Counted from the first letter of the stretch, positions 30,387 through 57,504 are shown. The stretch: 64,000 nt of DNA from Candidatus Poribacteria bacterium (GCA_965222225.1 CBDCTK010000002.1:5344001-5408000), one strand, 5' to 3'. Notes: generated from the letters alone by a model not told the origin. Made by a program: numbers and translations.

Positions 30387-30639
30387 CGTTCAATCACTTA
30401 TCCATCAAGGCAATCGTACCTGATTCTAAACTAGGCACTCTTGTAGGGTGCGCACTGCGATCAAGGGAGTGAGTAGCGACCAGGATAGAGATCCCACCAG
30501 CCTTTGAAAACTCTAGCGGACGACAGGTAGTATGGTAGCGGAAACTTCGAATGTACACAGCCGATTCGAGAGAAACACGGACAAACTACAAGCAAATCCC
30601 CATCCTTCCCGACTTCCGCCCTTTGAGCGCCTCCCTGAA

Positions 30640-31359
30640 TCATTCCTCAGGTGAGATGTCGATGACCTCGGCACCATCCGGAATGTCAAAGTTGAAAAAC
30701 CCTTCGTCAAGTTTTCGATTTCGTTTGATGTTCGTCAGCGATATGATTCCACTTACATCGCTTTCAGCATCGTTCTGTAGTTTGTACCCAAACTGAATCG
30801 GCAACCAATCCTTTGCCTGAATCCACATTTCCAGAGTCTCGCGAGGCAATTGCCTACCGTCCACAGGTTTGGACAGCATATGGGGTTTGGGAGTCAATTC
30901 AATTTGATAAACGCCTTTCTGGTTAGCAACTTCATCAACAACAAGCTTCATGTCGTAATTCTTTTGAACATCTTGCAATGAAGCGTCAATTCCTGGCAAT
31001 AACGGTTCGTGTTCCGGCTTGTTCAGTTTCATCTTGTTGACTTGATTCAGCATAGGGGTATATGCCCACGAATAGGTGCCATCCAAGACGATGAGCTGCA
31101 CAAGTTGAGTCGAATCTTTTTGGCTGACGGTTCTTTTTCGAAGTAAATTGGGCTTGCTAAAGGTCAATTCCCCTCGGGAAGAACCTTTCACGCCATCGCG
31201 AAAAATGGTCTCCTCAAACTCTGCACTGAAGTTTCGAGATTCGTTGTAAGCCTTCCTGAAATTCTCGAAAACTTCATTGACCGTGTACGTGTAGCCGAAT
31301 GGTACATTCGTACTTAACAACAAAAATGGGAAAACAATTCCACCAAAAACCAACCTCAT
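30640..31359 (-). CDS. lolA: LolA-family outer-membrane lipoprotein carrier protein
   Basis: FSAEFEE..G.L.FSKPNLLR, IVLDG..W.Y.P.LNQV, F.FDIPDGAEVID. Confidence 0.75.
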   Translation of the reverse strand: MRLVFGGIVFPFLLLSTNVPFGYTYTVNEVFENFRKAYNESRNFSAEFEETIFRDGVKGSSRGELTFSKPNLLRKRTVSQKDSTQLVQLIVLDGTYSWAYTPMLNQVNKMKLNKPEHEPLLPGIDASLQDVQKNYDMKLVVDEVANQKGVYQIELTPKPHMLSKPVDGRQLPRETLEMWIQAKDWLPIQFGYKLQNDAESDVSGIISLTNIKRNRKLDEGFFNFDIPDGAEVIDISPEE

Positions 31360-31410
31360 CGCAGCCTCCGTCATCAACAGCAACAATCGGCAGTATAGCA
31401 CCTGCCGCAG

Positions 31411-31905
31411 TTAGTTGTCAACGCTCTTTTCCTGCCGCAAAAGCAACTCTTGGTCGACAATTTCCCGCACTTCGTTAGCTGTCACATGTATCCTCGACCA
31501 ATCCGAGAGGAATACTTCCGCTTCGTTCGGCTTTTCCAACGCATGTTGAACAAACCGCTCGAGAAGTCTTGAAACCTCCTCATTCCTAAAGATACCCTGA
31601 AACCAATTTGAGAACTCCTTGATGGCATCTGGGTCTACGGAAAACGCCCAGAAATTCAATTGGCAGAAATCCAATCCCTCTTCACATGTCTTCTGTGAAA
31701 TCCACACCGTCTCGGGGAAACTCTCCAATATAGGGAAGAGATCTATCAATAGGCAACACAAGCGGTCATCCAAGTAGGAAATTGCCGGCAGAATGTCAAA
31801 CCGAACACTCAGTTTGTGTGCGTGGAGTGGTATTGGATCGCCTTTCGCGTGGGCATCTGTGCCCTTAATGTCGATAATTTGCTCTTTTTTGCTTCTGAAT
31901 AACAA
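31411..31905 (-). CDS. Hypothetical protein
   Basis: 164-aa ORF co-directional with neighbours; GGGG RBS-like sequence before TTG. Confidence 0.55.
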   Translation of the reverse strand: MLFRSKKEQIIDIKGTDAHAKGDPIPLHAHKLSVRFDILPAISYLDDRLCCLLIDLFPILESFPETVWISQKTCEEGLDFCQLNFWAFSVDPDAIKEFSNWFQGIFRNEEVSRLLERFVQHALEKPNEAEVFLSDWSRIHVTANEVREIVDQELLLRQEKSVDN

Positions 31906-32138
31906 AACTTACAATCCCCCAAATGTTGACTATTTGCTCATTCTCGACGTTACTCTCGTCGGTTATTATACTCACCGTTTTTCGGGCAATGCAATGAGAA
32001 ATCTGTATGAGTCGACACACTCCGAAGGCTTGTGTTATACTTACGACCTAGGCGCTCGTTATTCGAGTTTCCGGATCACAATGGTGTTTGAAAACGAGTC
32101 CATTAGCGGCAGATTGCTGAACCTGAGGCGTAGGAGTT

Positions 32139-33029
32139 ATGAGAACGTCCCATAAATACTTGGATCCGGCTTCCTTGTCTAAACTTGGCAACATGGAGCT
32201 GGTCGCACGTCTGGTTGTGGAAGGATTCATTACCGGGCTGCACAAGAGTCCATATCAGGGATTCAGCGTAGAATTTGCTGAGCACAGACAATACATGCCC
32301 GGCGACGAGATTAGGTACATTGACTGGAAGGTGTTTGGAAAATCTGACCGCTATTACGTCAAGAAGTTTGAAGAAGAAACCAACCTCCGCGCCTACATTA
32401 TACTGGATGCCAGCGCCTCAATGAACTATAAATACGACGAAAGCAGCCTTACAAAATTCCAATACGGTTGCTATTGCGTGGCATCCTTGTCGTATTTGAT
32501 GCTCAAGCAACGCGACTCGGTTGGTATGGCAATCTTCGATACCCACATCAAGGAGTATATCCCTCCACGTGGTGCTGCAACCCACCTGCAAGCCATCCTG
32601 TCCAGCCTTGAGAGTACCGAACCTGGGAATGAAACGGATTTGAGCACAATCTTCCATGAACTTGCGAAGCGGATTGTCCGTCGCGGGTTGGTAATCGTGA
32701 TTTCCGACCTCCTCGATGAGCCGTCCAAAGTGCTGTCTGCTCTTAAACACTTGCGCCATCGTAAGCATGAAGTTATAGTCTTTCATCTGTTGGATAAAGC
32801 CGAGATGATGTTCCCGTTTGAAGGACCTGTGGTCTTTCAAGACATGGAAACCGCGAGGACGCTCCCGACGCAGGCGGAGACGCTCAAAGCCGGTTATCTT
32901 CAACAGATGGAAGAGTTTATTCAGAACTATCGGCGTGGATGTGGCGGGAATTCGATCGATTATGTGCAGATTGACACGTCAACACCATTCGATCATGCCC
33001 TATCGTCCTATCTGGCACACAGAAAATAA
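32139..33029 (+). CDS. DUF58 (vWA-associated) protein
   Basis: GLHKSPYQGFSVEFAEHRQYMPGDEIRYIDWK, FEEETNL, DASASM. Confidence 0.93.
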   Translation: MRTSHKYLDPASLSKLGNMELVARLVVEGFITGLHKSPYQGFSVEFAEHRQYMPGDEIRYIDWKVFGKSDRYYVKKFEEETNLRAYIILDASASMNYKYDESSLTKFQYGCYCVASLSYLMLKQRDSVGMAIFDTHIKEYIPPRGAATHLQAILSSLESTEPGNETDLSTIFHELAKRIVRRGLVIVISDLLDEPSKVLSALKHLRHRKHEVIVFHLLDKAEMMFPFEGPVVFQDMETARTLPTQAETLKAGYLQQMEEFIQNYRRGCGGNSIDYVQIDTSTPFDHALSSYLAHRK

Positions 33030-33032
33030 CAA

Positions 33033-33165
33033 CCCTCTCCACTTCTCCCTCTCTCCTTCCCTCCATCCTTCCAATGCCCTCCTTTCCCTCTTCTGTTCTC
33101 TGATAATTCTAGTCTTCCACCCTTCCATCTCTTCCCTTTTTCTTTCTCCCAATCTCCCGCTTGCA
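33033..33165 (+). repeat. Pyrimidine-rich low-complexity tract (CTTCCAT-like units)
   Basis: Nearly G-free tract; similar tracts at ~43475-43520 and ~54720-54760. Confidence 0.6.
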
Positions 33166-33229
33166 TCGGAGAATAGCCTTGACAATCTGGGCACTGCGCA
33201 ATAAAATAATCACGTAGTAGAAGCATTAA

Positions 33230-33469
33230 GAGCCTGATTGAAAAGTACAGGAAAAGTACAGTTTGTAGGGTGCGATCAAAGGAATGAATAATGACTGCGA
33301 TAGAGATCCCCTGCGCACCAGCCTCTAAAAGCCCCAGAGTGGGATCAAGGGAGCGAATAGCCACTGCGATAGAGATTCTACAGGTATGTAGCAGCCAACA
33401 ATGAAAACATGAAAAAACTTTCTACAAATGACCAAAAATGGCTTTGCCGCCGATTATTCAAACAGGTTC
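33230..33469. mobile_element. MITE-like family B copy carrying a REP and two GA-hairpin units
   Basis: TAA|GAGCCTGATTGAA ... TTCAAACAGGTTC|TGA. Confidence 0.65.
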
Positions 33470-33535
33470 TGAGCGGAAGCCGTCATGTTGTATATGGATA
33501 TCGATTCCTAATCCGTATATCGCGGGAGATTACGT

Positions 33536-34555
33536 ATGGATGTGAAGTATACTGTTCTGATGACCGATTACGCATGGCCCTCGGTTGAACCCGAGCGCAA
33601 GGTACTGTCTGAGATCGGAGCAGAACTAATCGTCGCTGAAACGGGGGCTGAAGATGAATTGGTAAGCTTGGCGCCGCAATCCGATGGCATCCTTACATGC
33701 TGGGAGCAGACGACTACCGCCGTCATCAGAGCGGCTGAGCGTTGTCAAGTCATAGGACGTTGCGGCATCGGGCTTGATAACATTGATGTGAATACTGCAA
33801 CCGAGCTTGGAATTGTTGTCACCAATGTGCCGGCATATTGCATTGACGAAGTCTCCGATCACGCGATGGCTCTGTTATTGGCGTGTGCTCGGAAGATTTC
33901 CATCTTTGACCGGGAAGCCAAACGCGGCAGTTGGGTACGAGATGTAGGTCCCCCGGTGTACCGAATTCGCGGCAAAACGCTGGGCATTATGGGGTTCGGC
34001 AAGATTGGGAAAGCCGTAGTGCCGAAAGCGAAAGCCTTCGGACTTGATGTCATTGTCTACTCGCCGAGCCTATCCTCACAGGTTGCGGAATCGTGCGGTG
34101 TCCAAAAAGTTGAACTCCCTGAGTTGCTGATGCAATCCGACTTCATCACGATTCACGCGCCGCTGAATTCTAGGACTGAAAACCTCCTAGGGAAAGAGGA
34201 ATTTCGTCAGATGAAAGAGACTGCTTATGTCATCAACACGTCGCGAGGCGGGATCATTGACACGGCCGCGCTTTGTACGGCCGTACAAAAGGGGTGGATC
34301 GCTGGAGCAGGTTTGGATGTACTGGCTGAAGAACCTCCGGCGCCGGATGAACCGCTGATTGAATTGGATAATATTGTTATTACACCACACGCCGCCTTCG
34401 CATCTGAAGAATCAACATACGACCTTGAGGTGAGTGCTGCACGTGCCGTCGCGGATGTATTGAGTGGGAAAATGCCGGGGTCCGTCGTTAACCGAGAAGT
34501 TTTGGAAAGCCCGCTGCTTCGCGCAAAAGCGCTTGGCGATCAACCGAGTGGATAG
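33536..34555 (+). CDS. D-2-hydroxyacid dehydrogenase (SerA/CtBP-like)
   Basis: GIGLDNID, GIMGFGKIG, INTSRGGII, AGLDV..EP, ITPHAAF. Confidence 0.92.
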   Translation: MDVKYTVLMTDYAWPSVEPERKVLSEIGAELIVAETGAEDELVSLAPQSDGILTCWEQTTTAVIRAAERCQVIGRCGIGLDNIDVNTATELGIVVTNVPAYCIDEVSDHAMALLLACARKISIFDREAKRGSWVRDVGPPVYRIRGKTLGIMGFGKIGKAVVPKAKAFGLDVIVYSPSLSSQVAESCGVQKVELPELLMQSDFITIHAPLNSRTENLLGKEEFRQMKETAYVINTSRGGIIDTAALCTAVQKGWIAGAGLDVLAEEPPAPDEPLIELDNIVITPHAAFASEESTYDLEVSAARAVADVLSGKMPGSVVNREVLESPLLRAKALGDQPSG

Positions 34556-34811
34556 CGAGGGCGATAGAGATTCCCTCAAGCAAGCGAGTGATTAGCGATC
34601 AGCCGAACGAATAGTGAGGGATCAAGTGACTGAACAAGGGGCGCGATAGAGTTCCCATAGTAAATCCCGTGCGATAGAAATTCACTAGCCACTGCCCACT
34701 GCTTTAAGTTGCCATGCTTTCCAGAGTCGAAAACGCGTAATCCGATACCGTATATTTTTAGCGAATAAACCACTAAGTCGAGGTGCAAGGAGAGGTGCAA
34801 GGAGTTGTTAC

Positions 34812-36011
34812 ATGCAGGCATTACCTGATGCAACAGGGCACTTCGGGGAGTTCGGTGGCAGATATGTTCCTGAGACATTGATGCCCGCCCTGTTGGAACT
34901 TGAAGAAGCCTACCGGTCCCTGAGTGCCGATCCGGAGTTTCAAAAAGAATTTGAATACTATCTGCGAGAATACGTCGGTAGACCCAATCCGCTCTATTAC
35001 GCCGAGCGGTTGACCGAGGAACTCGGCGGGGCAAAAATCTACCTCAAACGAGAAGATCTCAACCATACCGGCGCGCACAAAATCAACAATACGATTGGAC
35101 AAATTCTGCTCGCGCGTCGGATGGGCAAAAAACGAATAATAGCGGAGACCGGAGCGGGACAACACGGCGTCGCGACTGCCACAGTGACAGCGAAATTCAA
35201 TATGGAATGCGAAGTTTACATGGGCGAGGAGGATATAGAACGCCAGGCGCTCAATGTGTTTCGCATGCGCCTCATGGGTGCAAAAGTAACTCCTGTAAAT
35301 TCCGGTTCTCGAACCCTAAAGGACGCGATTAACGCCTCATTCCGCGACTGGGTGACAAACGTCCGAACGACCTATCTCCTCATCGGCTCCGTCGTGGGAG
35401 CGCACCCCTACCCGATGATTGTTCGGGAGTTCCAATCCGTAATCGGGGTTGAAACCAGGACACAAATACTTGAGAAAGAGGGACGGTTACCGGATTGTGT
35501 CGTCGCAAGCGTGGGCGGCGGCAGTAACTCGATCGGTATGTTCTATCCGTTCTACGAAGATGAGAGCGTGGAAATGATAGGCGTCGAAGCCGCCGGTGAG
35601 AGCATACTGAGCGGCAGGCATGCCGCCTCATTGAGCGAAGGCAGCATCGGGGTGTTCCACGGTGCAAAATGTTATCTGTTACAGGAAGACGATGGACAGA
35701 TAACCCCGGCGCATTCGATTTCCGCGGGACTTGACTATCCGGGAGTTGGTCCTGAACATAGCTATTACAAGGCGAGTGGAAGGGCTAATTATGTTTCAAT
35801 TACTGATGATGAAGCCGTAGACGGATTCAAATTGTTGTCGGAATTGGAAGGCATTATCCCGGCGCTTGAGGCCGCGCATGCAATTGCACATGTTCAAAAA
35901 ATCGCTCCGATGATGGATCGAGATGCCATTATTGTAGTCTGCCTCTCCGGGCGTGGTGACAAAGACGTTGGAGGGGAAATGGGCTCCGCGCCGCTTGCTC
36001 TCAGTCATTAA
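34812..36011 (+). CDS. trpB: Tryptophan synthase beta chain
   Basis: [49 protein letters not shown]. Confidence 0.98.
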
Positions 36012-36452
36012 AACCTGCCAAGAACCATCAGCCGTGTAGGAGCGACCTCCTGGTCGCGATTCCTTGCGGAATCGACAATCGTCAAATCACCGATTTCCCT
36101 TCTTCTCTTTCTTTGTAGGGATCAACCGACCGAATAGGATCAAGCGAGCGATTAGCGAGTGCGATAGAGATCTTAAGGCGATAGAAATCCCTGCGCAAAT
36201 CTGCGTTCCCTACTCTCACACACCATCGCTTTTACTAGCCACAGCCCACGTTTACCGATATCCGCTCTTCTCTTTTTGCCTCCTCATTCATCGCATCTCC
36301 GTCTCAAGCGAAGTTAAGAGCACTCTCACACCCCATAATCAGATGAAACCTCCCTCGTAGCGTCCTACATCTCGCTTGCTTTTGGAATGCCCTAGTGCTA
36401 TAATTGCCAAAATTGAAATGGCGTCAAATCCTAACTCGTTAAGGAAATCAAC

Positions 36453-37133
36453 ATGCAAATCAATTTTCAGAGCGTCATCGATCTCTCCTACCAGATTGAC
36501 GAAAACAGTCCGCGAGAGCTGCCAATTGACCCCGTGCGTATTTACGATACCGCAACGCTGGAGAAAGACGGCTACTTTGAAAGCCGCGTCGATCTGTCCG
36601 GTCACTGCGCGACGCACATTGACGCCCCTTGCCTGATGTATACGGATGGTTTCACCGTGGCGGACATCCCGAAGGACAAGCTTACCGGGAATGCGGTGCT
36701 CATGGACCTCTCCGACACGAAGAAACCGACCGATGCCGTGACATCGGAAGATATTGAGATGTGGATAACTGCAAATGTAGAAATCCCGAATGACAGTATC
36801 GTATTCATGCGCACGGGAATGGATACGTACGCCTATCAAGATATTTTCAATCGAGGCTGGATCGGGTTCAGCGAAGATGCAGCCGAACTCTTGGTCGAAA
36901 AAGGTATCAAGCTGATTGGGACAGATGCGTGCAGCATTGATTCAATGGCGGGACATCCACCGCAACATGATGGATTGCCGCCCGCTCACCTCGTTTTTCT
37001 TGGCGCCGGAGTTCCACAGGTTGAAGATCTCTGCAATTTGAGTCTATTGCCCACGCAATTCTTCGCGGTAGTTGCCCCTATGAAGTTGGCGCGAAGTTCG
37101 GGCGCTCCAACACGCGTCTTGGCTTTTGTATAA
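36453..37133 (+). CDS. Cyclase family protein (kynurenine formamidase-like)
   Basis: HCATHIDAP, G.D..SID, H..FL, P.KL..SSGAP.RV. Confidence 0.88.
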   Translation: MQINFQSVIDLSYQIDENSPRELPIDPVRIYDTATLEKDGYFESRVDLSGHCATHIDAPCLMYTDGFTVADIPKDKLTGNAVLMDLSDTKKPTDAVTSEDIEMWITANVEIPNDSIVFMRTGMDTYAYQDIFNRGWIGFSEDAAELLVEKGIKLIGTDACSIDSMAGHPPQHDGLPPAHLVFLGAGVPQVEDLCNLSLLPTQFFAVVAPMKLARSSGAPTRVLAFV

Positions 37134-37249
37134 ATTTCGGTGGCGCGGCGTTTCTTGCAGTCCGATTGTGGGAATTCTGCCGCTTGCCGCGATACCCGCA
37201 TCCTGAGGATAACCGCGTGTCTGCGAGGGATAGTTGAACGGGCTAGAAT

Positions 37250-38776
37250 ATGGGGGACCAAGTCCTAACCGATCAGTCAAACCTCCCGTGTGAAACTCTT
37301 GATTTGCTGAGAGAGATTGGTGGCAAAACGCGGTTGCCCATCTGCCTCGTCGGCGGTTTTGTCCGCGACCTTCTGCTCGGGCGCGAGATTCTCGACCTAG
37401 ACATTGTCGTAGAGGGTGATGCAATCCGCTTTGCCCGAGAACTGGGAGAAAGTTGGGGTTGGGAAGTAAGAGCGCACCATCATTTCGGCACTGCGACGTT
37501 GATTCAACCTACGCGATCCAAAATTGACTTCGCCAGCGCTCGTAGCGAAACTTATGAGCATCCGGGTGCGTTACCATTAGTTAGCCTCGGCACAATTGAA
37601 GACGACCTGCGCCGACGCGATTTTTCGATTAATGCCCTCGCCATTCGTTTGAACTCTGACGGTTTCGGGGTGCTTATTGATTGCTTCGACGGAGTTAAAG
37701 ATCTTCAAGCCGGACGGATTCGTGCGCTCCATTCTGAGAGCTTCTTTGACGATCCGACCCGCGTCTTTCGGGCGGTAAGATATGAAGGACGCTACGGTTT
37801 CCAAATTGAGGCGAAAGATCTAGCGCGTATTCATGGGGTACTCCATCAAGGTGTATTAGACCGGATTAGCGGCGAGCGCATTCGGAACGAAATCAATCGT
37901 ATCTTGGCGGAAGACGCCGTACCGCGCATCGTTCAACGGTTGCTTGAATTTGACGTATTTCGGGCAATTCATCCGGAATGGGAGTTACCGCTAGATTTTG
38001 GCGCCGTTTGGGCTGCGGTTCGAAAGGCAATTGATTGGGCATTGACGAACCTCCCCGATGAACAGATTGACGGAAAACAGATGGGGTGGATGTCACTGCT
38101 GGGAGTGGTCAATTGGACTGGATCCCACTCCTGTCATGAGGCTACGCCAACTTATGTAATCCAAGCAATCACCGATAGGCTGGTCTTGCCTCATCGTCTC
38201 CGCAGACTATTCCAAACGGAGGCTGACCTGCAAAAAGATTTGGCTGAAGGAAAAATCTCGGGGAAGGTGCTAGAAACGCTAGAAAGAAAAGACCTCTCGC
38301 TTTCCCGGAACGCCACAATTCGAGGGGGGAAAAACAGATGGCTAATCTCCGACGCATGCAATAAGAAAACCTTTGCAATCAGAAAAGAGAACCAAGGTCT
38401 CTATGTTTGTGAAATTCAGACGGAATTGACTGCTAGTCAACACTTGTGCAAAGCTCTTGGCAGGTTATCCCCCGATTCCAAGCCAAGCGAAGTATATCAC
38501 CTGTTGAAGCCTTACGCTGTTGAGGCACTGGTGTTCACTCTGATGCAGCCGGAGCAACCTAAATGGCGAGCGGAAAAAATTGAGGGTTATTTGATTAATT
38601 TGCGCAAGATTGAGCCGTTAATCTGTGGAGACGATTTGATTCAGATCGGGCTGCAACCGGGAAAAGCGTTTACAAATCTCATCTCCAAGGCATTCGAAGC
38701 CCAGTTGGATGGCGAGATTTCCACAAAACAGGAGGCCTACGAGTTTCTAGGCTTTAATGATGCTCAATCCATTTGA
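37250..38776 (+). CDS. CCA-adding/poly(A) polymerase-family tRNA nucleotidyltransferase with internal insertion
   Basis: VGGFVRDLLLG..DLDIVV, DDLRRRDFSINA, SF.DDPTR..RA.RY. Confidence 0.9.
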   Translation: MGDQVLTDQSNLPCETLDLLREIGGKTRLPICLVGGFVRDLLLGREILDLDIVVEGDAIRFARELGESWGWEVRAHHHFGTATLIQPTRSKIDFASARSETYEHPGALPLVSLGTIEDDLRRRDFSINALAIRLNSDGFGVLIDCFDGVKDLQAGRIRALHSESFFDDPTRVFRAVRYEGRYGFQIEAKDLARIHGVLHQGVLDRISGERIRNEINRILAEDAVPRIVQRLLEFDVFRAIHPEWELPLDFGAVWAAVRKAIDWALTNLPDEQIDGKQMGWMSLLGVVNWTGSHSCHEATPTYVIQAITDRLVLPHRLRRLFQTEADLQKDLAEGKISGKVLETLERKDLSLSRNATIRGGKNRWLISDACNKKTFAIRKENQGLYVCEIQTELTASQHLCKALGRLSPDSKPSEVYHLLKPYAVEALVFTLMQPEQPKWRAEKIEGYLINLRKIEPLICGDDLIQIGLQPGKAFTNLISKAFEAQLDGEISTKQEAYEFLGFNDAQSI

Positions 38777-39443
38777 GGCAATCCCGCGTATAATCTTTGA
38801 GGCCGTCCTTCTTGTAATTCAATTCATCATCCTGTTGACTTTCCACGAGTGGGGGCACGCGAAAGCGGCGCTCATGCTAGGAGATCCGACAGCCAGAGAC
38901 GAAGAGCGGCTGACGCTCAACCCGGCAGCCCACATCGACATACTCGGAACGGTTATACTGCCACTAGTCGGCTTGCTTTCCAATAGTATGTTCTTCGGAT
39001 GGGCAAAGCCGGTTCCGGTCGACTCGCGTAATTTGAAGAATCCCAAGCGAGACCTGATGATCATCGCCGCAGCGGGTCCCCTGATGAACATCATCTGCAC
39101 TTTCGTGATTTTGCTTGTGGTCAAACTGCTTGTAGAATTTGTCGGCATTTCTATACACCGTGAAGTCCAAAATCAATTGGAACTGCCTGCTAGAATTAGC
39201 GTGATTCTTGCGGTTTTCAACATGCTCCCCCTATTTCCTCTGGATGGGTTCAGTGTGGTTTATGGGCTATTACCTTGGAAACAGGCGCAGGCGTTTGACA
39301 AGCTACGCCCTTATGGAATGATGATTCTGCTTGGGATAATTTTTCTCCCCAATCTGTTGAGAATCCCTAACCCGGTCTTTATTATAATTCATTTCGCGTC
39401 TTTCGGAATTTTCGATCTGTTTCACTCACTCGTTGGCCTCTGA
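38757..39443 (+). CDS. Site-2 protease (M50) family protein
   Basis: HEWGH, GWAKPVP, AAGP..N, FNMLPLFPLDG. Confidence 0.93.
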   Translation: MMLNPFEAIPRIIFEAVLLVIQFIILLTFHEWGHAKAALMLGDPTARDEERLTLNPAAHIDILGTVILPLVGLLSNSMFFGWAKPVPVDSRNLKNPKRDLMIIAAAGPLMNIICTFVILLVVKLLVEFVGISIHREVQNQLELPARISVILAVFNMLPLFPLDGFSVVYGLLPWKQAQAFDKLRPYGMMILLGIIFLPNLLRIPNPVFIIIHFASFGIFDLFHSLVGL

Positions 39444-39737
39444 AAACAGAATCAGAATGAGATAATGGTTTAGTTCAGTCAATAGAACCAGTCTGTAATT
39501 GGATTAAATCTATTAGGATTAGCGCACTGTGGTTTGTAATAGTGCAATTCATTGCATGTCCGGCGCGGACATTTGACAACCCGATTCATCGGGATTAGCA
39601 TTGTCCTTCTCTTCTCGGCGCGCTCCCTAACTGCTCGGTCTGGATTGGCAAATCTAAACCGCGAATCTGCCCTAAATTTTCGAAAACCGCCACGCGAAAA
39701 TCATTCTGTACACGCTATAATACCACGTACTGAATTT

Positions 39738-40499
39738 ATGCAGCCATTACCGATGGACTCCCATCCCCAATCCACAGACTCGATATACTCCATCAAACTC
39801 GATATTTTTGAAGGACCGCTGGATCTGCTGCTTCACCTGATTCAGAAGGACGAGATGGATGTTAGAGATATTCGTATTGCCGAGATTACGGAACGTTATT
39901 TGGAGTGGCTGAATCTTATGGAGCAACTGGATCTGGATGTTGCTTCGGAATTTCTGGTAATGGCGGCGACGCTGCTCTATCTCAAATCACAGAGTATTCT
40001 TCCATCCGCAACCGATCAGGATACGTTGCCAATCAAAAATCGAGAGGAGCTTGTTAAGCAACTCTTGGATTACAAGCAGTTCAAGGAAGCATCGCAAGTG
40101 CTGAATCGCTATGCCGAAGAGCATGAACAAATTTACGGACGAAGTGTTGATTCTGGTGTCGAACTGGGAGACTTGCGCGAGTTTGAGATTAAAGCAACCC
40201 TCTTTGATCTGTTATCGGCGTTTCAGCGAACCACCGAGAGGTTGCAATTTATTGATGATGATGCTTACGAGGAAATTAACGAAGAGCAAATAACCGTTGA
40301 GGAAAAGATGGAGTTCTTGGTACGCATATTGAAGGAATCCGAACAGGTGCCGTTTGAAGATCTTTTCTCCGATTTTGCAACCAAAGTCGAACAAATTGTG
40401 ACATTCTTGGCAATCTTGGAGCTGATTCGCCTGAAACGTATCATTGCCATTCAATCGGGGCAGTTTGGTCAAATATACATCGTAAGGCGCGAGGGCTGA
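39738..40499 (+). CDS. scpA: Segregation and condensation protein A
   Basis: FEGPLDLLLHLI, ASEFLVMAATLL..KS, TFLAILEL. Confidence 0.95.
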   Translation: MQPLPMDSHPQSTDSIYSIKLDIFEGPLDLLLHLIQKDEMDVRDIRIAEITERYLEWLNLMEQLDLDVASEFLVMAATLLYLKSQSILPSATDQDTLPIKNREELVKQLLDYKQFKEASQVLNRYAEEHEQIYGRSVDSGVELGDLREFEIKATLFDLLSAFQRTTERLQFIDDDAYEEINEEQITVEEKMEFLVRILKESEQVPFEDLFSDFATKVEQIVTFLAILELIRLKRIIAIQSGQFGQIYIVRREG

Positions 40500-40563
40500 G
40501 TCACAAACCGTACGGGGTTCAAGATTAAAAATCAGCCCCAACTCCCTATCAAGTATTACTGTC

Positions 40564-41151
40564 ATGATCGAAAATTCCCCCACTCCTCCCCAGGAATCTT
40601 CCTTGAGTCCAACCCAAATCAAATCAATCCTTGAAGCGATTCTCTTCGTCGCCAACGAACCAATATCGATAAAGCAATTTACTCAAGTCTTTGGAAACGT
40701 TTCAACACACGACATCCGCGAGCAACTGATGGCGCTTGAAAATGACTATCAAGCTGAAAACCGCAGTTTCCAGCTTATCGAAATTGCCAACGGTTTTCAG
40801 GTGTGTTCACGCCCTGAATACCGTGACTGGATTGAGAAATTCTATACACGTCAGGTTCGTGTCCGACTTTCGCCTCCGGCGCTTGAAACCCTTGCCATCG
40901 TCGCGTATAAGCAGCCCGTTACACGGACGGAAGTGGAAGAAATTCGAGGTGTGAACAGTGACAGCGTTGTAAATTCACTTATTCAGAAAGGGTTGATACG
41001 CATCTCGGGGCGAAAACCTGGACAAGGTCGGTCTCTCCTTTTCTCCACCACGGATAAATTCTTGGAGCAATTTGGGCTAAAAAATCTCTCCGAACTGCCG
41101 TCTATGGAAGAGATTGAGGAGATTCTACATGAAGTGCAAAACGAAGAATAG
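40564..41151 (+). CDS. scpB: Segregation and condensation protein B
   Basis: LEAILF, LSPPALETLAIVAYKQPVTR..IRGV, FL..FGL..L.ELP. Confidence 0.95.
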   Translation: MIENSPTPPQESSLSPTQIKSILEAILFVANEPISIKQFTQVFGNVSTHDIREQLMALENDYQAENRSFQLIEIANGFQVCSRPEYRDWIEKFYTRQVRVRLSPPALETLAIVAYKQPVTRTEVEEIRGVNSDSVVNSLIQKGLIRISGRKPGQGRSLLFSTTDKFLEQFGLKNLSELPSMEEIEEILHEVQNEE

Positions 41152-41238
41152 GAATAGCAACGGGTGGTAACCAAAAATGGGAGTACGGAAAATTCGGGAT
41201 CTCATGCTATAAACGAAATCTGGGAGCGGAAATAAGAA

Positions 41239-42774: not shown

Positions 42775-42779
42775 AGAGA

Positions 42780-43825: not shown

Positions 43826-43844
43826 AATCTGTCATGAGGAAAAA

Positions 43845-45932: not shown

Positions 45933-45959
45933 TACCCTCTATCATCCCGAACCAATTTT

Positions 45960-45980
45960 GTAGGGTGCGCACTGCGCACC
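45960..45980 (+). repeat. Empty GTAG-type REP palindrome GTAG-GGTGCGCA-C-TGCGCACC
   Basis: Identical copy at 62803-62824; other REP families GTAGGAGCGA..TCGCGAC (18955, 36036) and GTAGRGTGGGCACCGCCCACC (52667). Confidence 0.75.
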
Positions 45981-46174
45981 AGCCTTTAAAAGCGACGGTG
46001 TGCGATCAACCGAGCGAATAACAAGCACGACAGTGTTTCCATAGAGATTCCACCAGCCTTTGAAAGCGCGAGCGGTGCGATTGGTATATCACATGTATTG
46101 CAGGCGACAACCAAAGCGTGAAAAGACCTCTCCCAAAATGCCCAAAAAATAGCTTTGCCGCCCATTACACACAG

Positions 46175-46558: not shown

Positions 46559-46586
46559 TCCCTACGCCTCAGCTTCCATTACACAT

Positions 46587-47240: not shown

Positions 47241-47722
47241 AACTTCACACCCAAAACCAAAGATTAAGAACCCGTTGGAAAACTCATTTCGAGTAGAACC
47301 ACCGCTCTGAAACTAACCTTTATTCAAGATTAAATCCCTGCACCAGTCTTTGCAAGCCCCAGAGTGGGATCAACTGAGCGGATAGCGAAGGCGATAGAGA
47401 TCTTAAAGGTTGGAGGATGTTAGAATCCGCCGGCGACTTTTCCCGATGCATCGGGCTGGGTGAAACACGAGTTCGAGTCTACAGGGAAGACTTTTTCAAT
47501 GGCCAACCAAAAAGACTAGATGGTTAAAACTTCACCCGCTTTTCTGGAACACTTGATTGACACCGTCTGTTGTACTGCTTAAATGTACAAAGTCAAACTA
47601 AGACCTCGCCCTTTCATCTGTGCTAAAATCTGTAACGGTCAGGCAGATATGAGACACTCCGAACTGTTCCCCTCCCGACCCTACGGAAACAAACTCCTGC
47701 GATTGGTGACGCATTGCAAAGC

Positions 47723-47850
47723 GTAGGGGTTGGGATCAACTGACTGGATAAGGAAGGATCAAGGGAATGGATAATGACCGATCAAGCGAATGAATAATGA
47801 GCGCGATAGCAAATCCCAATAGAACTCCCATAGAGATCCCCCCAACCCGT
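47723..47850 (+). repeat. REP hairpin containing three nested ~36-nt GA-hairpin units (representative of ~25 loci)
   Basis: Three GATCAA heads (47734, 47757, 47780) followed by three ATAG..TCCC tails inside GTAGGGGTTGGG...CCCAACCC. Confidence 0.85.
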
Positions 47851-47962
47851 TGGGTGCGGTATTCGCATTGGGAGGTGTTTCACATAAATGTCAACACGCC
47901 CTAATACAACTTTCCCCAAAACCCGCTGCGAGTAAGATTGCGCTAAGGCAGGCGGTACGAAA

Positions 47963-48322
47963 TCACTTCTGCGTTGCGAAGCGCCTTCGTTCGCGAACTC
48001 TTGCCGAATTTCCGGTTCTATCTCGCAGATAGTACAATTTGGCGCGTCGCACCGCGCCATATCGGAGCACCTCGATACTCTCGATGTTCGGCGAATGTAA
48101 TGGAAAAGTTCTCTCACTCCCTTCTCCAAAAGCCACACGTCGGACCGTAAAAGTTTCACTTAAGCCACCATTGGAGCGGCCTATCACTGTTCCCTCGTAT
48201 GCCTGAATACGTTCCTTCTCGCCCTCCCGAATCTTTGTGTTGACTCGCACCATATCACCTGGGCCGAATTCCGGGAAACCCTCCTTTATATACTCGCTCT
48301 CGACAGATTCAATTAGGTTCAT
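47963..48322 (-). CDS. rplS: 50S ribosomal protein L19
   Basis: [40 protein letters not shown]. Confidence 0.98.
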
Positions 48323-52088: not shown

Positions 52089-52096
52089 TAATTTCT

Positions 52097-52616: not shown

Positions 52617-53048
52617 TGGAAAATTAGAAAACTATCAGGGCAATCGCATCTGATTGTGAATGTATTGTAGAGTGGGCACCGCCCACCGCTTTTCGCCTTA
52701 TTGATTCACCACATGCGAAACACCAACGTGCGATCTGCAATCATCAAGTTACCGATTTCCCTTCTTCTCTGCTTTGTAGAGATCAACCGACCGAATAGGA
52801 TCACGCGAGCGATTAGCGAGTGCGATAGAGATCTTAAGGCGATAGAAATCCCTGCGCAGATCTGCGTTCCTTATCCTCTACTCGCCATCGCATTTACTGA
52901 TCGTTGGCGACTGTTCTTGCCGGTTTCCATCGGTAACCATCAAATCCCCAATTTTCCCCCTTCCCATCGCTTTTCATTTCTTCGTCTTGCCTAGTCTTAC
53001 ACTCTTTGCCCAGCCTTGTCACGGAGGCATACCTCACCACTATTATCG

Positions 53049-54392: not shown

Positions 54393-54888
54393 GGATCAAC
54401 CGAGTGAACAGCGAGGGCGATAGTAAATCCCAAAGTGAGTGATCAAGCGACTGGATAAGGAGCGCGATAGAACTCCCATAGAGATCTTCTTGCCCCGCAT
54501 CGGAAAGACTTGATTGATGATGTTAATGCACTAATGCACTGTAAATAAAGGGAGATGGTATTACTTATCTTCGCCCGTTACTCCCTATGAAGTGAAGATA
54601 TCCAATGTGCCCATTCACCTGCTCACGAACACGGCAAGGGAATCATATCCATCGGCCCTCTTCGACAGATAGAGTTTCGTGGCGATCAAAGGAATGAATA
54701 GTGACTGCGATAGAGTTCCTTCCGCTCTCCCATCCATCCGTCTTTCCCTTTCTCCGCTTTAATAGCCTGCAGGTTGGGAGAACAATCAACGGAATGGATA
54801 ATGACCACGATAGCGCTCCCACCATCCTTTTGAAAGCACTGGCGGCACCAAAACCAACTAAGTGAAATGGCAAAACAATAGCTACATC

Positions 54889-56103
54889 CTAAAATTTCGC
54901 CTTAATCTGCAACCTCGCCTTATGCTGATACGGATTAGATTCGGAAGAGAGGATATTCTTTGCCGCGAAATATATTGCTTCCGTGCCGATATTCTCGGAA
55001 AGCGGCAGCGCAACTCTTAAGCCATGTCCCTGCGTATTCGGATTGAATATATCGGCATTATTATAGTTCGATATCATTGATTCTCGTTCAACCCAAACAT
55101 AGTAGTAACGTCCATGCAGTCTATGCAAGCCCGATATTGGCCCAACCCCGACTTCAAACCAATACGCCTCGTCATTGATGTCCGCCAATAGGTTTTGCGC
55201 ATAAACACCGGTAAACTTTGAAGGCATCGATCTGATTTCGGATTTATACTCTGCAAGCCACTCAACAATCCTAAACCCAAATAGATACGAGGATTCTCCT
55301 GTACCTGCCCCAATCCGCGCGTTCGTATCCCCACCACCTAATCTGCCATCCTCAACCGCTTGGGCGATGTTGTCCTCATTCCGATATTCATAGAGGATCG
55401 TACCAAGCGACAACCCTTCGAAATGCAATCCCCTAAAAAACAGTTGCCCCGCAAAGAGATTGGTATCCGGACCGCTCTTGGATTCCGCCAGAATGAATTG
55501 CCCAAGATTTACCTGTGCCTGACGAATCAAGCCGAAGTTATCTAGGCGAAACTGCTGCGCTGCCCCTTCAAACTGCACATCGTTGTGAAAGACCAACTCA
55601 ACACGTTCGAATGGATTGGCAAACTTACCAATTGTAAACGTCAGTAACGGATTCGGTGAATATCGGAGGAACAACCGATCGAGATTGAAATCCTTCTTCG
55701 AAAAATAATCGTCAAGGTCCACATTCCCTGTGGTCGGGTCATCCGTCGCACCCGTGACCATTCTGAATCCGAGATTAGCATGTGGCTGAATCGGAAAGTT
55801 TCCACCCAAACGGAATCTGATGCGATACCGATAGCGGCTCGGAGAACCCTCCCGAAAAATGCTTTCCTGACGAAATCTGCCATCGGCGGAGAAATACGTC
55901 CTCCAAAGTTCCTTGGCTATCTGAGATGTCTCTCGATCGCCTGACTCTGAAACGTCGAGGGCGCCAGCCTCCTGCCATTGTTGTCCTTTGGACGATGCCA
56001 GTACTTCACCGGCAATAGCCAGAACCAAGAGAACGGTAAAAAACACATTAACACGAGTGCCAAACCCGGCGTTTACAATTCTGTTTGTTTCCCCGTGGCA
56101 CAT
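54889..56103 (-). CDS. Putative outer-membrane porin
   Basis: ADGRFRQE..RYRYRIRFRLG, DPTTGN.DL, F.LDRLF, GKF.NPF, D..FEG, terminal F. Confidence 0.75.
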   Translation of the reverse strand: MCHGETNRIVNAGFGTRVNVFFTVLLVLAIAGEVLASSKGQQWQEAGALDVSESGDRETSQIAKELWRTYFSADGRFRQESIFREGSPSRYRYRIRFRLGGNFPIQPHANLGFRMVTGATDDPTTGNVDLDDYFSKKDFNLDRLFLRYSPNPLLTFTIGKFANPFERVELVFHNDVQFEGAAQQFRLDNFGLIRQAQVNLGQFILAESKSGPDTNLFAGQLFFRGLHFEGLSLGTILYEYRNEDNIAQAVEDGRLGGGDTNARIGAGTGESSYLFGFRIVEWLAEYKSEIRSMPSKFTGVYAQNLLADINDEAYWFEVGVGPISGLHRLHGRYYYVWVERESMISNYNNADIFNPNTQGHGLRVALPLSENIGTEAIYFAAKNILSSESNPYQHKARLQIKAKF

Positions 56104-56117
56104 AGCTTTCCTTAATT

Positions 56118-57020
56118 CTACCAATTGGAATCGTACTCCCATCCTGACCGTTGCTTCCCGTATCGTGTCCCGTTCAACTCGGTTTGATGGCAGTCCAAGC
56201 ATCTGTCATAGACACTCACACCGTGCACCTCATGCGCAAACTGGATGTCTGGAGTGTTGTGAACGTGGCACGTTCGACAGGTGTAGGTTCTATAAACTGA
56301 ATCGGCGTATATATTAAGCCCCTCCGTTTCTTTTCTGACGATGTATTTCCGTTGATTGTTGAGGTCGGTTATCAACCATTCGGACGCTTCCCTTCTCGTT
56401 GCCACGGTGGCATGTTGGGAGATTGGTATGCTTCGAACCTCGAACTCCCACTGAATATTTCCTGATAGAGTTTCATCTACATTTAGCTCGCTCTCAGATT
56501 CTCCATCCATGCTAAACACCAACGGTTTTGACGTATGACACTTTGCGCACGGAATGTCGTGTTCTTCAGTCAAAGGAAAGAATTCATCGTGCTCAAGTTT
56601 CTCACGACCATGAACGAGAATTGCAATGAGCAAAATGGGTGCCAGTGCCAAATGACAACGCAGCACAATGCGTCGAGACTGTGCTTTCGTGAGACTCACC
56701 GCAACCCCGGTTCCCAGATTGAGCCAAGCTAAACCAAACGTCAGCCATGAGTGCCATGTCTCTGGTTTAACGCTTGAATGAATCAAAACAAGGCACAAAC
56801 CGAACGACGCAAGCCCCTGGTGATATTTTAACAACCGGCTCCGATTCCCCCATCGAAAGAGTCGGGTTCGCAAAATATAGAGGCTGGCAATCACAATTGC
56901 AATGGCGCCGATAATGCTCAGCGTATGCCGTGATTCACCAAAGCTGGATTGGAGAATGAACACAACGGATACGGCGACAGCGGCGAGGACGCCAATTGCC
57001 ATCTGCAAGAACGGCTGCAT
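56118..57020 (-). CDS. Membrane-anchored multiheme c-type cytochrome (3 CxxCH) with His-bearing TM helices
   Basis: About 5 TM helices with His residues; CAKCH, CRTCH, CLDCH; start uncertain (ORF open to 57146). Confidence 0.7.
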   Translation of the reverse strand: MQPFLQMAIGVLAAVAVSVVFILQSSFGESRHTLSIIGAIAIVIASLYILRTRLFRWGNRSRLLKYHQGLASFGLCLVLIHSSVKPETWHSWLTFGLAWLNLGTGVAVSLTKAQSRRIVLRCHLALAPILLIAILVHGREKLEHDEFFPLTEEHDIPCAKCHTSKPLVFSMDGESESELNVDETLSGNIQWEFEVRSIPISQHATVATRREASEWLITDLNNQRKYIVRKETEGLNIYADSVYRTYTCRTCHVHNTPDIQFAHEVHGVSVYDRCLDCHQTELNGTRYGKQRSGWEYDSNW

Positions 57021-57504
57021 ACCGAAAGTTGTCCTTTTGTGTTTCGCTACTACAAATTTGATCTTGACGGTTTCTTCGGAAACGTAGCAGACGCGCAAAT
57101 TGTACCACATCCTGTGCGTGTTGAAAACACATATATGGGACGGCACCTATACCGTCCCATGAGTGTTGTAGGGATCGATCCTACCTTTGTCGCCTTTAGG
57201 AGGGAATTCCGATTTCCGACACTAGATAGCCAGTTGTAGGGTGGGATCAAAGGAATGGACAATGACTGCGATAGAGATCCCCCGCCCACCATTAAATACC
57301 TATTGGTAATTTACGTCTTCATGTTTGAAGAGGACAAATCGCGACACAATCAAATCATTTTGAACGGAGTTGACCGTCTTGTCAAGCGTACCATTCACCA
57401 GAGACAATTTGATGCTTGCATTAAAAGCCGGACTGTGATAGTGTCTAAGGCCACAAAGCCGCATGGTATTCCTCTACGAATAACAACAACGAGACGAAAA
57501 CAAG

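Follow-up and report, generated by a model that had tools for sequence, protein, structure and literature searches.

The present study reveals that a short dispersed unit in the genome of a Poribacteria sponge symbiont (a MAG, G000) is very probably a mobile insertion element that enters its targets without duplicating them. The copies share the consensus (G)ATCAA-NN-GA-NN-G-NNN-A-NN-GA-NN-GCGATAGAGATCC(C), with a conserved block at positions 1-37 and an inserted length of 35-37 nt, and a pattern search tolerating 3 mismatches retrieved 883 copies genome-wide. In the window, i.e. the whole stretch of 64,000 nucleotides analysed, 29 matches were observed against 0.07 expected, a number reached in 0 of 100 shuffles; a degenerate copy at 58207 escapes the pattern. 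The unit has no coding capacity, and 831 of the 883 copies lie outside ORFs of at least 100 aa, which make up 78% of the genome. Re-inspection of the window found every coordinate cited in a preliminary description to be as described. The features are as follows.

9255-9291, plus strand: unit
11134-11170, plus strand: unit after CGCTCCAGCGGAG, in a CGCTCCAG.GGAGCG-type repeat
11300-11336, plus strand: unit in a non-REP AATCC-type context
15580-15616, plus strand: unit in REP2 (GTAG at 15572)
17308-17344, plus strand: unit; also a unit at 17561-17597
17492-17528, plus strand: unit in a REP2 variant (GTAG at 17481)
18955-18978, plus strand: empty REP2, GTAGGAGCGAT..TCGCGA (GTAGGAGCGA..TCGCGA)
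19481-19590, plus strand: REP3 (GTAGGCGGGG..TTGCCCCGCC type) with several nested units, including 19534-19570
19424-19460: further unit near the filled REP3 of 19481
28642-28678, plus strand: unit in REP3 (GTAGGCGGG at 28633; GTAGGCGGGG..TTGCCCCGCC type)
28948-28984, plus strand: degenerate unit
30459-30495, plus strand: unit in REP1 (GTAG at 30443), after REP G17 (site 2); orthologous site in G005 empty
33274-33310, plus strand: unit in REP1 (GTAG at 33265), after G10 (site 1), CA lost; within a composite repeat of ~220 bp
33343-33379, plus strand: unit in a CCCCAG.GGGG-CG-ACAGGT repeat (family flanking Y1 gene A)
34538-34574, plus strand: unit; also a unit at 34620-34656
36036-36059, plus strand: empty REP2 (GTAGGAGCGA..TCGCGA)
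36138-36174, plus strand: unit
43427-43463, minus strand: unit, the only one on this strand in the window
43664-43719, plus strand: REP3 (GTAG at 43655; GTAGGCGGGG..TTGCCCCGCC type) with "two heads, one tail", a partial outer head at 43664-43682 and a full unit at 43683-43719
45960-45984, plus strand: empty REP1, GTAGGGTGCGCACTGCGCACCAGCC (GTAGGGTGCG-CA-CTGCGCACC)
46004-46040, plus strand: degenerate unit
47368-47404, plus strand: unit; also a unit at 47780-47816
52667-52687, plus strand: empty REP1b, GTAGAGTGGGCACCGCCCACC (GTAGAGTGGG-CA-CCGCCCACC)
52799-52835, plus strand: unit
54394-54477, plus strand: two adjoining units (54394-54430 and 54441-54477); further unit at 54684-54720
57245-57281, plus strand: unit in REP1b (GTAGGGTGGG at 57236), CA lost
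58207-58296, plus strand: filled REP2 with a degenerate unit, missed by the 3-mismatch pattern, and extra unit tails
60505-60541, plus strand: unit
62803-62827, plus strand: empty REP1 (GTAGGGTGCG-CA-CTGCGCACC)
63412-63448, plus strand: unit in REP2 (GTAG at 63404)

First, the junctions were tabulated genome-wide. The preliminary description held that the unit is inserted 3' of a G, with loss of 1-2 nt and no target duplication, in at least five unrelated host repeats; six repeat sites with both empty and filled forms were found, which gain 36-37 nt and lose 1-4 nt.

REP1 site 1: empty CA (n=62), filled 36 nt (n=15)
REP1 site 2: empty C (n=60), filled 36 nt (n=15)
REP1b: empty CA (n=67), filled 36 nt (n=6)
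Repeat flanking Y1 gene A: empty CG (n=17), filled 36 nt (n=7); 21 more scored 37-38 nt because the left pattern allowed one G fewer
REP2: empty AT (n=56), filled 37 nt (n=4) or 36 nt (n=1)
REP3: empty CATC (n=9), filled 37 nt (n=4)

The 5' joint is exact and recreates GATC; it is fixed at all six sites, and G precedes ATCAA in 821 of the 883 copies. At the 3' joint the target loses 0-4 nt, a wider range than the 1-2 nt claimed, and nothing is duplicated, target duplication being absent at all six sites. The dinucleotide CA is lost in three GTAG REPs, and no antisense unit was found between the same flanks at the filled sites of the six types. The view that the unit is an insertion and not an original part of the REP is further borne out by its occurrence at six or more unrelated repeat sites, in other units and in unique palindromes, by its varied stems (4/16, 8/14, 6/7, 10/28, 5/5 and 3/3 distinct variants per filled site type) and by orthologous empty alleles.

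Second, the unit is selected for base pairing. Positions 7-23, 8-22, 11-19 and 12-18 covary, and 92.2% of cells in the 29 window copies are paired compared with 58.3% in shuffles, of which 0 of 500 reach the observed value; slid controls gave at most 53%. The stem consists of 2+2 bp with G-A pairs, and the G9A10/G20A21 tandem and G13/A17 are 92-99% conserved. No GTAG or CGTC tag was observed at the 5' end of the 883 copies, which reads (G)ATCAA. GATC, positioned 2 nt before the hairpin, occupies the place equivalent to the REP tag.

Third, REPs are only some of the targets. The preliminary description regarded the unit as a parasite of REP hairpins, and REPs do host it, but only 109 of the 883 copies lie in GTAG-tagged hairpins (216 lie in untagged ones), and, compared with random intergenic GSG sites, hairpins are enriched just ~1.4-fold overall, or 2-fold in the case of loops; the further suggestion of a host mechanism that inactivates REPs found no support. 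Another unit is the host of 225 of the 883 copies, with a modal nested joint after host-unit G24 and loss of C25G26 (20 of 63 scored), and 196 units have flanks unique in the genome. The preferred left target context is GSG, usually followed by CR, and the commonest left flank is GCG (41 of 115). A second small-repeat family is also present in this genome.

The comparison of orthologous regions revealed empty alleles in related species at four sites and in both directions; thus, the unit is gained or lost between species. At 30443 the G005 ortholog is empty, and G009 and G003 carry the unit at the same REP position; the simplest reading against G005 is 35 nt inserted and 0 nt lost. Two G005 units have empty orthologous sites in G000, and the unit at G000 C2:3560213 has empty orthologous sites in G001 and G005. 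In the G005 segment, 94 of the 110 pattern matches have no alignable flanks, indicating high turnover between species. The unit is abundant in two genera only and absent from most of the phylum.

Orientation is unrelated to the direction of flanking genes (++ 306, -- 258) and follows domains of 30-100 kb opposite to GC skew. Orientation runs number 279, compared with 437±15 in shuffles, and the probability of the same orientation falls from 0.93 at <50 bp to 0.67 at 10-30 kb and to baseline past 100-300 kb. In 17 of 21 domains (95% by length) the gene-corrected GC skew has the opposite sign, a trend repeated in 400 kb of G005. Empty REPs share these domains (41:10, 38:9, 32:5, 5:0 and 12:2), units are co-oriented with the GTAG of the host REP (103:6), and nested units are co-oriented with the host unit (206:19). 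GATCAA is read on the C-rich strand, which by the usual rule would be the lagging strand and not the template for it. We consider it rather probable that insertion is a single-strand process linked to replication. The active strand of IS608 is described as the lagging-strand template (PMC6006769), and the polarity of the unit appears reversed relative to it.

Herein, we propose that the unit is a non-autonomous element of 35-36 nt, consisting of ATCAA, a short hairpin and GCGATAGAGATCC(C), which would enter, by copying or by pasting, a specific one of the two DNA strands directly 3' of a G, usually GSG then CR. It would often land at palindromes rich in GC, REPs and other units among them. The reaction may take place on single-stranded DNA at replication forks, where a putative RAYT/IS200-like Y1 (HUH) enzyme would act in trans and GATC would play the role that GTAG has in REPs. 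For this reading as a whole we see about an even chance, and the participation of a Y1 enzyme is a tentative suggestion, with chances somewhat below even. According to PMC8266576, tag position 4 pairs with base 1 of the dinucleotide that is cut, and position 3 or 2 pairs with base 2; for a GATC tag we would then expect a cut between G and A or between G and T, the former being the 5' joint of the unit.

Several observations do not fit this proposal. HUH transposition gives two exact joints, unlike the ragged 3' joint; the cut in the target falls behind a G, mostly between G and C, whereas the known RAYTs of PMC8266576 cut between C and T or C and A; the presumed lagging strand itself carries GATCAA, apparently the opposite of the arrangement that PMC6006769 describes for IS608; and the hairpin is thermodynamically weak (z-scores of +0.9 to +1.2 on the sense strand). 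Head-to-tail junctions, a sign suggested by the preliminary description, numbered 0-1, and the genome-wide junction table holds no excision scars and no REP1 site 1 with a 0 nt insert. Five Y1_Tnp loci are present in G000, among them gene A, which passes NCBIfam transpos_IS200 (65.8 bits, cut-off 55). However, every Y1/RAYT gene goes with a REP family of its own, inside which units sit, and at none of the five loci, nor at any of 25 loci inspected in relatives, does the unit itself serve as the gene's flanking repeat. No transposase could be recognised as a canonical cognate. No Y1 type tracks the unit across genomes, as type A also occurs in the unit-free genus g6, close relatives of type B are found in g1 only and not in g4, and type C is sporadic. 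The earlier idea that RAYT-generated nicks may be the entry points is consistent with the co-orientation with GTAG, the filled REPs flanking Y1 genes and the lost CA, but not with the cut dinucleotides of known RAYTs in PMC8266576 or with the distribution of Y1 types.

Alternatively, units could be copied in with no dedicated transposase involved. A nick, or a nascent strand halted by a palindrome, would offer a 3'-OH ending in G; synthesis primed from it on a unit strand that is free or displaced would run off the end, and the new strand would go back to its own template, skipping 0-4 nt; HUH-made 3'-OH ends can prime replication, as described in PMC8266576. An exact 5' joint with a ragged 3' joint whose loss varies by site is what such priming would leave, GSG stands at the left of both donor and target and could serve as microhomology, and the sense strand is on the presumed lagging strand. 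The common "two heads, one tail" forms (HHT 36, HHTT 26) and 43664-43719 in the window look like template jumps, although HHT forms could also come from the collapse of two adjacent tails. However, insert length is sharply fixed (36 nt in 15 of 20 filled REP1 site 1 and 15 of 17 filled REP1 site 2 copies), and the scheme therefore needs a template of defined length, for whose origin it does not account. Moreover, neighbouring or nested units rarely have the same stem variant (0.025 against a background of 0.017), so that local donors are not used. We regard this explanation as unlikely.

A more doubtful alternative is that true insertions were few and that a host repeat or composite was multiplied with the unit inside, or that gene conversion acted within the repeat family. 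This would explain why a single stem variant is found in 13 of the 16 filled copies of REP1 site 1, which belongs to a ~220-bp repeat whose numerous copies are 81-96% identical, and why the most frequent 37-mer occurs 19 times, but not the 36 distinct stem variants among the 73 filled sites of the six types, the 771 distinct 37-mers among 883 copies, the 196 units in unique flanks, or gain and loss at unique orthologous sites. Just as improbable is the retention of the unit for a host function, as a protein-binding site or RNA element, with spread being secondary. The conserved non-Watson-Crick G-A tandem and loop, the compensatory stems and the 550-1240 copies in each of the 10 genomes of the genus are consistent with such a function; the independence of orientation from transcription, the lack of a matching Rfam family, the high turnover and the absence from most of the phylum are not, and ~90% pairing fits a decay of ~5% per site, as at conserved positions. 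Reverse transcription of a small RNA at a target nick is very improbable: the ragged 3' joint resembles target-primed synthesis and G-U is common at pair 7-23 (225 of 883 copies), but A-C or C-A is about as frequent as G-U at the other three pairs (8-22, 11-19 and 12-18), orientation is independent of transcription, and no reverse transcriptase tracks the unit, with RVT_1 matches at E<=1e-5 confined to 4 of the unit-rich genus's 10 genomes and mostly close to this threshold. Finally, filled ancestral forms emptied by deletion are scarcely credible and fail as a general explanation, since the unit is also found within its own copies, within repeats unrelated to one another and within unique sequence, every family has many more empty members than filled ones, and empty REPs are perfect palindromes; a loss in G005 is possible at the one site 30443, where G009 and G003 are filled.

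Among known systems, a DDE-derived MITE was rejected, as ATCAA and GATCC, the two ends of the unit, do not form inverted repeats and no target is duplicated. The unit resembles IS200/IS605 elements in insertion 3' of a short specific sequence without target duplication and in an orientation tied to replication direction (PMC6006769 for the ISs; GC skew for the unit), but has one hairpin and 35 nt, whereas the ISs have two structured ends, each with a subterminal hairpin, and exact joints on both sides; the inexact 3' joint and apparently reversed polarity also differ. The ISs described by Tobes and Pareja (2006; cited in PMC3733652) also prefer REP hairpins as landing sites, but they are autonomous, span kilobases and encode transposases, unlike the non-coding unit. 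With REPs/REPINs and RAYTs the unit has in common a short extragenic hairpin in hundreds of copies, a 4-nt tag upstream (GTAG of REP-Mb also lies 2 nt before the hairpin, PMC8266576), Y1 genes in the genome, the strand-specific single-strand chemistry expected and the orientation domains. It differs in lacking a GTAG/CGTC tag and a flanked cognate RAYT, in its 2+2 bp stem with G-A pairs where the REP stem is GC-rich and perfect, in its joint after G (not the C-T or C-A of PMC8266576), in lying within REPs as a guest and in moving as a singlet, whereas Bertels and Rainey report no sign that REP singlets are excised.

The small dispersed repeats (SDRs; SDR1-8, especially SDR5) of Nostocaceae (Elhai et al. 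2008, Genome Res 18:1484) are likewise very small elements taken as mobile, with precise insertion and no footprint. SDR hairpins reportedly carry compensatory changes, the elements are said to be nested, with several families per genome, and their size is reportedly 21-27 nt; to our knowledge, no replication-strand bias or junction table exists for them. The unit is inserted precisely, without duplication, and nested in other repeats, its hairpin is kept by compensatory changes, and a second family accompanies it, all in line with these SDR traits. In GCGATCGC, the insertion point of SDR5 is between bases 3 and 4, i.e. after GCG (PMC4390886), as in the commonest joint of the unit, GCG-ATC. 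The size is different, with a block of 37 nt and an insert of 35-37 nt compared with 21 nt for SDR5 (PMC13756078), as are the target (REPs and palindromes, not HIP1) and the host, a member of the Poribacteria and not a cyanobacterium; Xu et al. 2018 found no SDR-like repeat outside Nostocaceae among HIP1-rich cyanobacteria. The reading we favour is a non-autonomous single-strand element with strand specificity, nearest to Elhai's SDRs, by their descriptions, and to REPs; the unit is among the smallest mobile DNAs with mapped junctions.

The unit, a hairpin element of 35-37 nt, occurs well above chance, and the reading that it is an insertion is correct. Its degenerate pattern was matched 29 times in the window, 28 of them on the plus strand, versus 0.07 matches expected, and none of 100 shuffles reached 29; in the whole genome (5.70 Mb in two contigs, 50% G+C), 883 matches were observed. 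On re-inspection of the window, all of the coordinates that the preliminary description had assigned to empty repeats (without the unit) and filled repeats (with it) were borne out. REP1 (GTAGGGTGCGCACTGCGCACCAGCC), one of the GTAG-tagged host hairpin families, is empty at 45960 and 62803 and filled after base 10 at 33265 and after base 17 at 30443; GTAGAGTGGGCACCGCCCACC is empty at 52667 and a related repeat is filled at 57236; and the GTAGGAGCGA repeats, the GTAGGCGGGG repeats and the AATCC context were in the states originally described. Genome-wide, six repeat sites were found both empty and filled, with a geometry that is constant within each site.

Junctions at the six repeat sites (left flank, x, right flank; counts in parentheses)
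REP1 site 1: GTAGGGTGCG, x, CTGCGCACC; empty x = CA (62); filled x = 36 nt (15)
REP1 site 2: GCACTGCG, x, ACCAGCC; empty x = C (60); filled x = 36 nt (15)
REP1b: GTAGGGTGGG, x, CYGCCCACC; empty x = CA (67); filled x = 36 nt (6)
Gene-A repeat: CCCCAG.GGGG, x, ACAGGT; empty x = CG (17); filled x = 36 nt (7, and 21 scored 1-2 longer)
REP2: GTAGGAGCG, x, YTCC...TCGCGA; empty x = AT (56); filled x = 37 nt (4) or 36 nt (1)
REP3: GTAGGCGGGG, x, TTGCCCCGCC; empty x = CATC (9); filled x = 37 nt (4)

At all six sites, the insert starts with ATCAA immediately 3' of G, and the loss of bases is on the 3' side. Together with the orthologous site at 30443, these junctions support the earlier claim of insertion 3' of G without target duplication; the claimed loss of 1-2 nt stands at the CA, C, CG and AT sites, but the loss was of 4 nt at REP3 (CATC) and of none at the ortholog of 30443. 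For 115 of the 883 units, an empty paralogue was recovered in a blind search based on anchors of 11 nt; a gain of 36 nt for a loss of 2 nt was the most frequent class (22 cases), and the common left flank ended in G in 75 of the 115 and in GCG in 41. The same unit is found in unrelated repeats, in other units and in unique DNA. Nesting within another unit was observed for 225 of the 883, and among 63 cleanly scored nested joints the mode (20) was after G24 of the host unit, with C25G26 lost. For the 196 units with genome-unique flanks, the left flank is still G-S-G, the right flank is nearly information-free, and many of the targets are short palindromes. Hairpins are the targets of 190 of the 883 units versus 455 of 3000 random intergenic GSG sites, a modest enrichment, and hairpin loops those of 114 units versus 185 such sites. 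Distinct stem variants per filled site type numbered 4 of 16, 8 of 14, 6 of 7, 10 of 28, 5 of 5 and 3 of 3. The unit arrived by insertion, and deletion does not account in general for the empty repeats. Part of its spread is accounted for by hitch-hiking: one stem variant is common to 13 of the 16 filled copies of REP1 site 1, and this site is part of a many-copy repeat of ~220 bp. In the window, this composite (33251-33473) holds two filled repeats, REP1 and one of the gene-A type, each with one unit, along with further sequence; it recurs at many places in the genome and in sister genomes with 81-96% identity, indicating that some filled REPs multiply within a larger element.

The sister species have a common gene order, with genes 80-91% identical, and the comparison of orthologous loci that the preliminary description had proposed revealed empty alleles in the window's genome (G000) and in two sister species (G001 and G005). 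At 30443, the REP is intact in G005 and the flanks are identical, the sole difference being ATCAAGGG...GAGATCC, that is, 35 nt placed between G and C without any loss or duplication of bases. In two other sister species (G003 and G009), the equivalent REP position is filled by a unit that differs in its stem bases, and thus the unit may have been lost from G005 at this particular site. Of 110 loose pattern hits in 400 kb of G005, 94 are without alignable flanks in G000 and 10 others are false, genic matches; two units are empty in G000, at C2:1101956 and C2:4636675 (REP2), and two others are common to both genomes. At C2:1101956, the G005 unit is located at a palindrome of 6 bp within the reading frame of an IS5-like transposase, and the G000 gene is uninterrupted. 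This unit-bearing frame is present in G005 as two inverted copies ~1 kb apart (C1:~2589600 and ~2590580). The unit at G000 C2:3560213 is missing from the equivalent repeat in G001 and G005. Between species, gain or loss thus goes both ways. In Logan contigs from four runs, compared with window positions 28001-48000, contigs end at the repeats, and two unit-skipping joints (33273 to 33311, and 43664 to 43720 in X10) have 2-3x the local depth and may be paralogues. JGI metagenome contigs gave no matches for the 30443 empty-allele pattern or the unit pattern, and IMG/VR viral contigs none for the unit.

The unit is sharply bounded: position 1 is G in 821 of the 883 matches, and the information content jumps there and drops past position 37. 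The consensus is G ATCAA NN GA NN G NNN A NN GA NN GCGATAGAGATCCC, in which covariation in the form of Watson-Crick or G-T pairs links positions 7-23, 8-22, 11-19 and 12-18. Among the 29 copies in the window, 92.2% of the paired cells are complementary versus 58.3% after shuffling (none of 500 shuffles equalled the observed value), and sliding the partner column by 1-3 as a control gave at most 53% pairing. The conserved G9A10 and G20A21 separate the two 2-bp stems, and G13 and A17 close the loop. The folding energy, calculated from nearest-neighbour energies, is weak and not beyond that of shuffles, so that the pairing is probably read or stabilised by a protein. The 883 copies comprise 771 distinct 37-mers and 250 stem combinations, with the outer and inner stems assorting almost freely. 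Pairing per position holds in ~90% of copies, which matches the decay of ~5-8% at conserved positions; selection at each locus is therefore not required, and it would be enough if pairing were selected when the unit is copied. Three identical 24-nt unit "heads" in tandem followed by one tail were observed at C2:1543617-1543700, which looks like local slippage-type amplification and not nesting. No Rfam family was matched at the gathering score in the whole window, or at E<=5 in 33150-34750.

The orientation of the unit follows domains of replication scale. In a crude longest-ORF gene set, which is not a true annotation, the flanking genes had the same orientation as the unit in 306 cases and the opposite one in 258, and were divergent in 144 and convergent in 123; of 52 units within ORFs, 25 were sense and 27 antisense. 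A link to transcription was rejected, as orientation has no relation to the flanking genes. Orientation is strongly clustered (279 runs versus 437+-15 expected), and the same-orientation probability is 0.93 at <50 bp, 0.67 at 10-30 kb, and at baseline past 100-300 kb. The correlation with local GC skew was r = -0.37, and -0.42 to -0.48 without the coding-strand component. When the domains were set from the units first and the skew was then taken in ORFs with units masked, the corrected skew was of opposite sign in 17 of 21 orientation domains, or 95% by length. To the right of dnaA (2.61 Mb), the skew is positive and the units are mostly minus, indicating that the GATCAA strand is the C-rich strand, presumably the lagging strand; the same trend was observed in the 400-kb piece of G005. 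Along contig C2, skew and unit orientation change sign ~20 times, and a second DnaA-domain gene is located at 0.60 Mb; this reflects either extensive rearrangement of the contig or misjoining at repeats. In five families, empty REPs keep the domains of the unit (41:10, 38:9, 32:5, 5:0 and 12:2). Over and above this regional effect, a unit inside a REP points the same way as the GTAG of that REP (103:6), and a nested unit the same way as the unit around it (206:19). Since REP1 is palindromic and offers the same GCG/CA (the slash marks the joint) on either strand, sequence alone does not explain this bias.

In a scan of one genome per species, at least 99 stretches with the unit were found, and among the matches listed all were from Candidatus Poribacteria MAGs. 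A survey of 176 genomes from the phylum gave high counts only for g1, the genus of the window (10 of 10 genomes, ~550-1240 matches), and for g4, a genus of another family (4 of 4, ~200); 1-21 matches were counted in each of seven remaining genomes and none in 155. The 21 matches in genome G057 are confined to 4 contigs, and the low counts outside g1 and g4 may be binning errors. No earlier report of such repeats in Poribacteria was found in the literature, among the matches listed. In addition, a second tiny element was observed, consisting of GATC, a 4-nt variable arm, ATCATCAAATC, the complementary arm, and GATTTCCCC, with a core of 31 nt (GATC-stem-CATCAA-stem-GATTTCCCC).

Places of the second element
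Window 36070-36100: second element
Window 52732-52762: second element
G000 C2:994749-994779: second element
G000, 21 other places: second element

Its stems vary compensatorily, and it is also located after G in REP-type hairpins. Matches numbered 22 in G000, 52 in G005 and 1-8 in each of five other g1 genomes, with none in the other three g1 genomes or in 21 searched genomes of other genera. At C2:994745, the second element holds the exact site filled by a main-family unit in G005.

Five Y1_Tnp loci (A-E), encoding single-strand HUH transposases, were found in G000. Two loci have inverted flanking units, resembling a RAYT-REP pair, but a cognate relation between the unit and a Y1 gene was rejected because the flanks show the units as guests in the REPs that belong to these genes. 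Gene A (C2:3080255-3080728; Y1_Tnp 83.7 bits; NCBIfam transpos_IS200 65.8 versus a cut-off of 55) is flanked in g1, g4 and the unit-free genus g6 by GCCCCAG.GGGGCGACAGGT doublets, into which units are inserted. Gene D, a RAYT-like Y1 gene outside the window (C2:~3088900-3089400), has REP2 on its flanks and an in-frame TAG, so that it is a pseudogene unless this codon is read through. The repeat that flanks the truncated gene B is GTAGGGAATAACG, and that of gene E is GTAGTAGGCA. As mobilisers, Y1 type B (close relatives in g1 only), Y1 type C (sporadic) and reverse transcriptase (RVT_1 in 4 of 10 g1 genomes, mostly weak) were rejected for distributions unlike that of the unit, which none of the Y1 types and RVT_1 examined tracks. 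Between G000 (C2:2563965-2564705) and G005 (C1:3780663-3781403), a Y1 protein of 247 aa has 99% identity, and no copy was found in most of the sister genomes; compared with 80-91% in shared genes, this identity suggests recent transfer. In G027, a g4 genome, a RAYT-like gene ends exactly at the start of a unit 3' fragment, GTGCGATAGAAATC (positions 1750-1790 of stretch L151), and units may cut short Y1 genes in addition to the REPs of these genes.

The polar junction, the requirement for G, the strand specificity, the replication-scale domains common to the REPs and the need for pairing are shown by these data. Herein, we propose, with considerable reservation, that g1 might harbour a "GATC-tagged" class of mini-elements, of two families or more, spread by an undescribed single-strand insertion reaction. 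First, the 5' joint would be formed at the 3'-OH of G on the nascent lagging strand. Second, the 3' joint would be resolved with few bases lost, and no cognate transposase gene would lie beside the repeats. In the favoured reading of the mechanism, the reaction is probably a single-strand one linked to the replication fork, and may be carried out in trans by a HUH/Y1 enzyme. According to the accessible part of one report, GTAG precedes the stem of REP-Mb by 2 nt, and the dinucleotide that is cut forms base pairs with positions 4 and 3 or 2 of this tag (PMC8266576). With GATC at the place of GTAG, this rule predicts a cut at G/A, which fits the 5' joint of the unit, and the target G would complete the tag. 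However, most targets of the unit are G/C, unlike the C/T or C/A cuts of RAYTs in the same part of that report (PMC8266576), and the polarity of the unit is the reverse of that given for IS608 in the accessible text of PMC6006769. The 3' joint is also ragged, head-to-tail or circle-type junctions numbered 0-1 in the genome, and excision scars were absent from it. The main rival is a 3'-OH-primed copy-in with run-off, which accounts for the ragged 3' joint and for the abundance of forms with "two heads, one tail" (HHT 36, HHTT 26), but presupposes a template of defined length. Reasoned from the junction table, recombination at an ATC core fails at REP1, REP3 and the gene-A repeat, targets without ATC, and a 31-nt excision from G/A to G/A fails at the same three; a mobile "head-only" piece of 23-25 nt was found at none of the six REP sites, and copying from a neighbouring unit as local donor was rejected.

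To our knowledge, the spread of REPs, SDRs and other tiny repeats is largely unexplained. The small dispersed repeats (SDRs) of Nostocaceae described by Elhai, which are reportedly tiny, nested and inserted without a footprint, are the nearest precedent for the unit. SDR5 is located after the GCG of HIP1 in the accessible part of PMC4390886, and that of PMC13756078 gives no established function for it; for REP singlets, the accessible part of PMC3116915 documents no insertion or excision event. The unit differs from SDRs in size, host phylum and targets, and is without two defining features of REPs, the GTAG tag and a cognate RAYT. The unit is a variant, not described before, of a known but unexplained kind of repeat. 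Because it lands in well-defined repeats, each insertion has a built-in empty reference, and these references yield junctions exact to the base, the rule that targets lie 3' of G (often GSG/CR), and the asymmetry of the joints; a further constraint is the strand polarity tied to GC skew, which is common to the REPs of the genome. Very small mobile repeats are now extended to an uncultured phylum of sponge symbionts, in which they erode the REPs on the flanks of RAYT genes. If the GATC-tagged class is true, no smaller transposable unit with mapped junctions would be known, and the unit would provide a mechanistic handle on the unexplained cyanobacterial SDRs.
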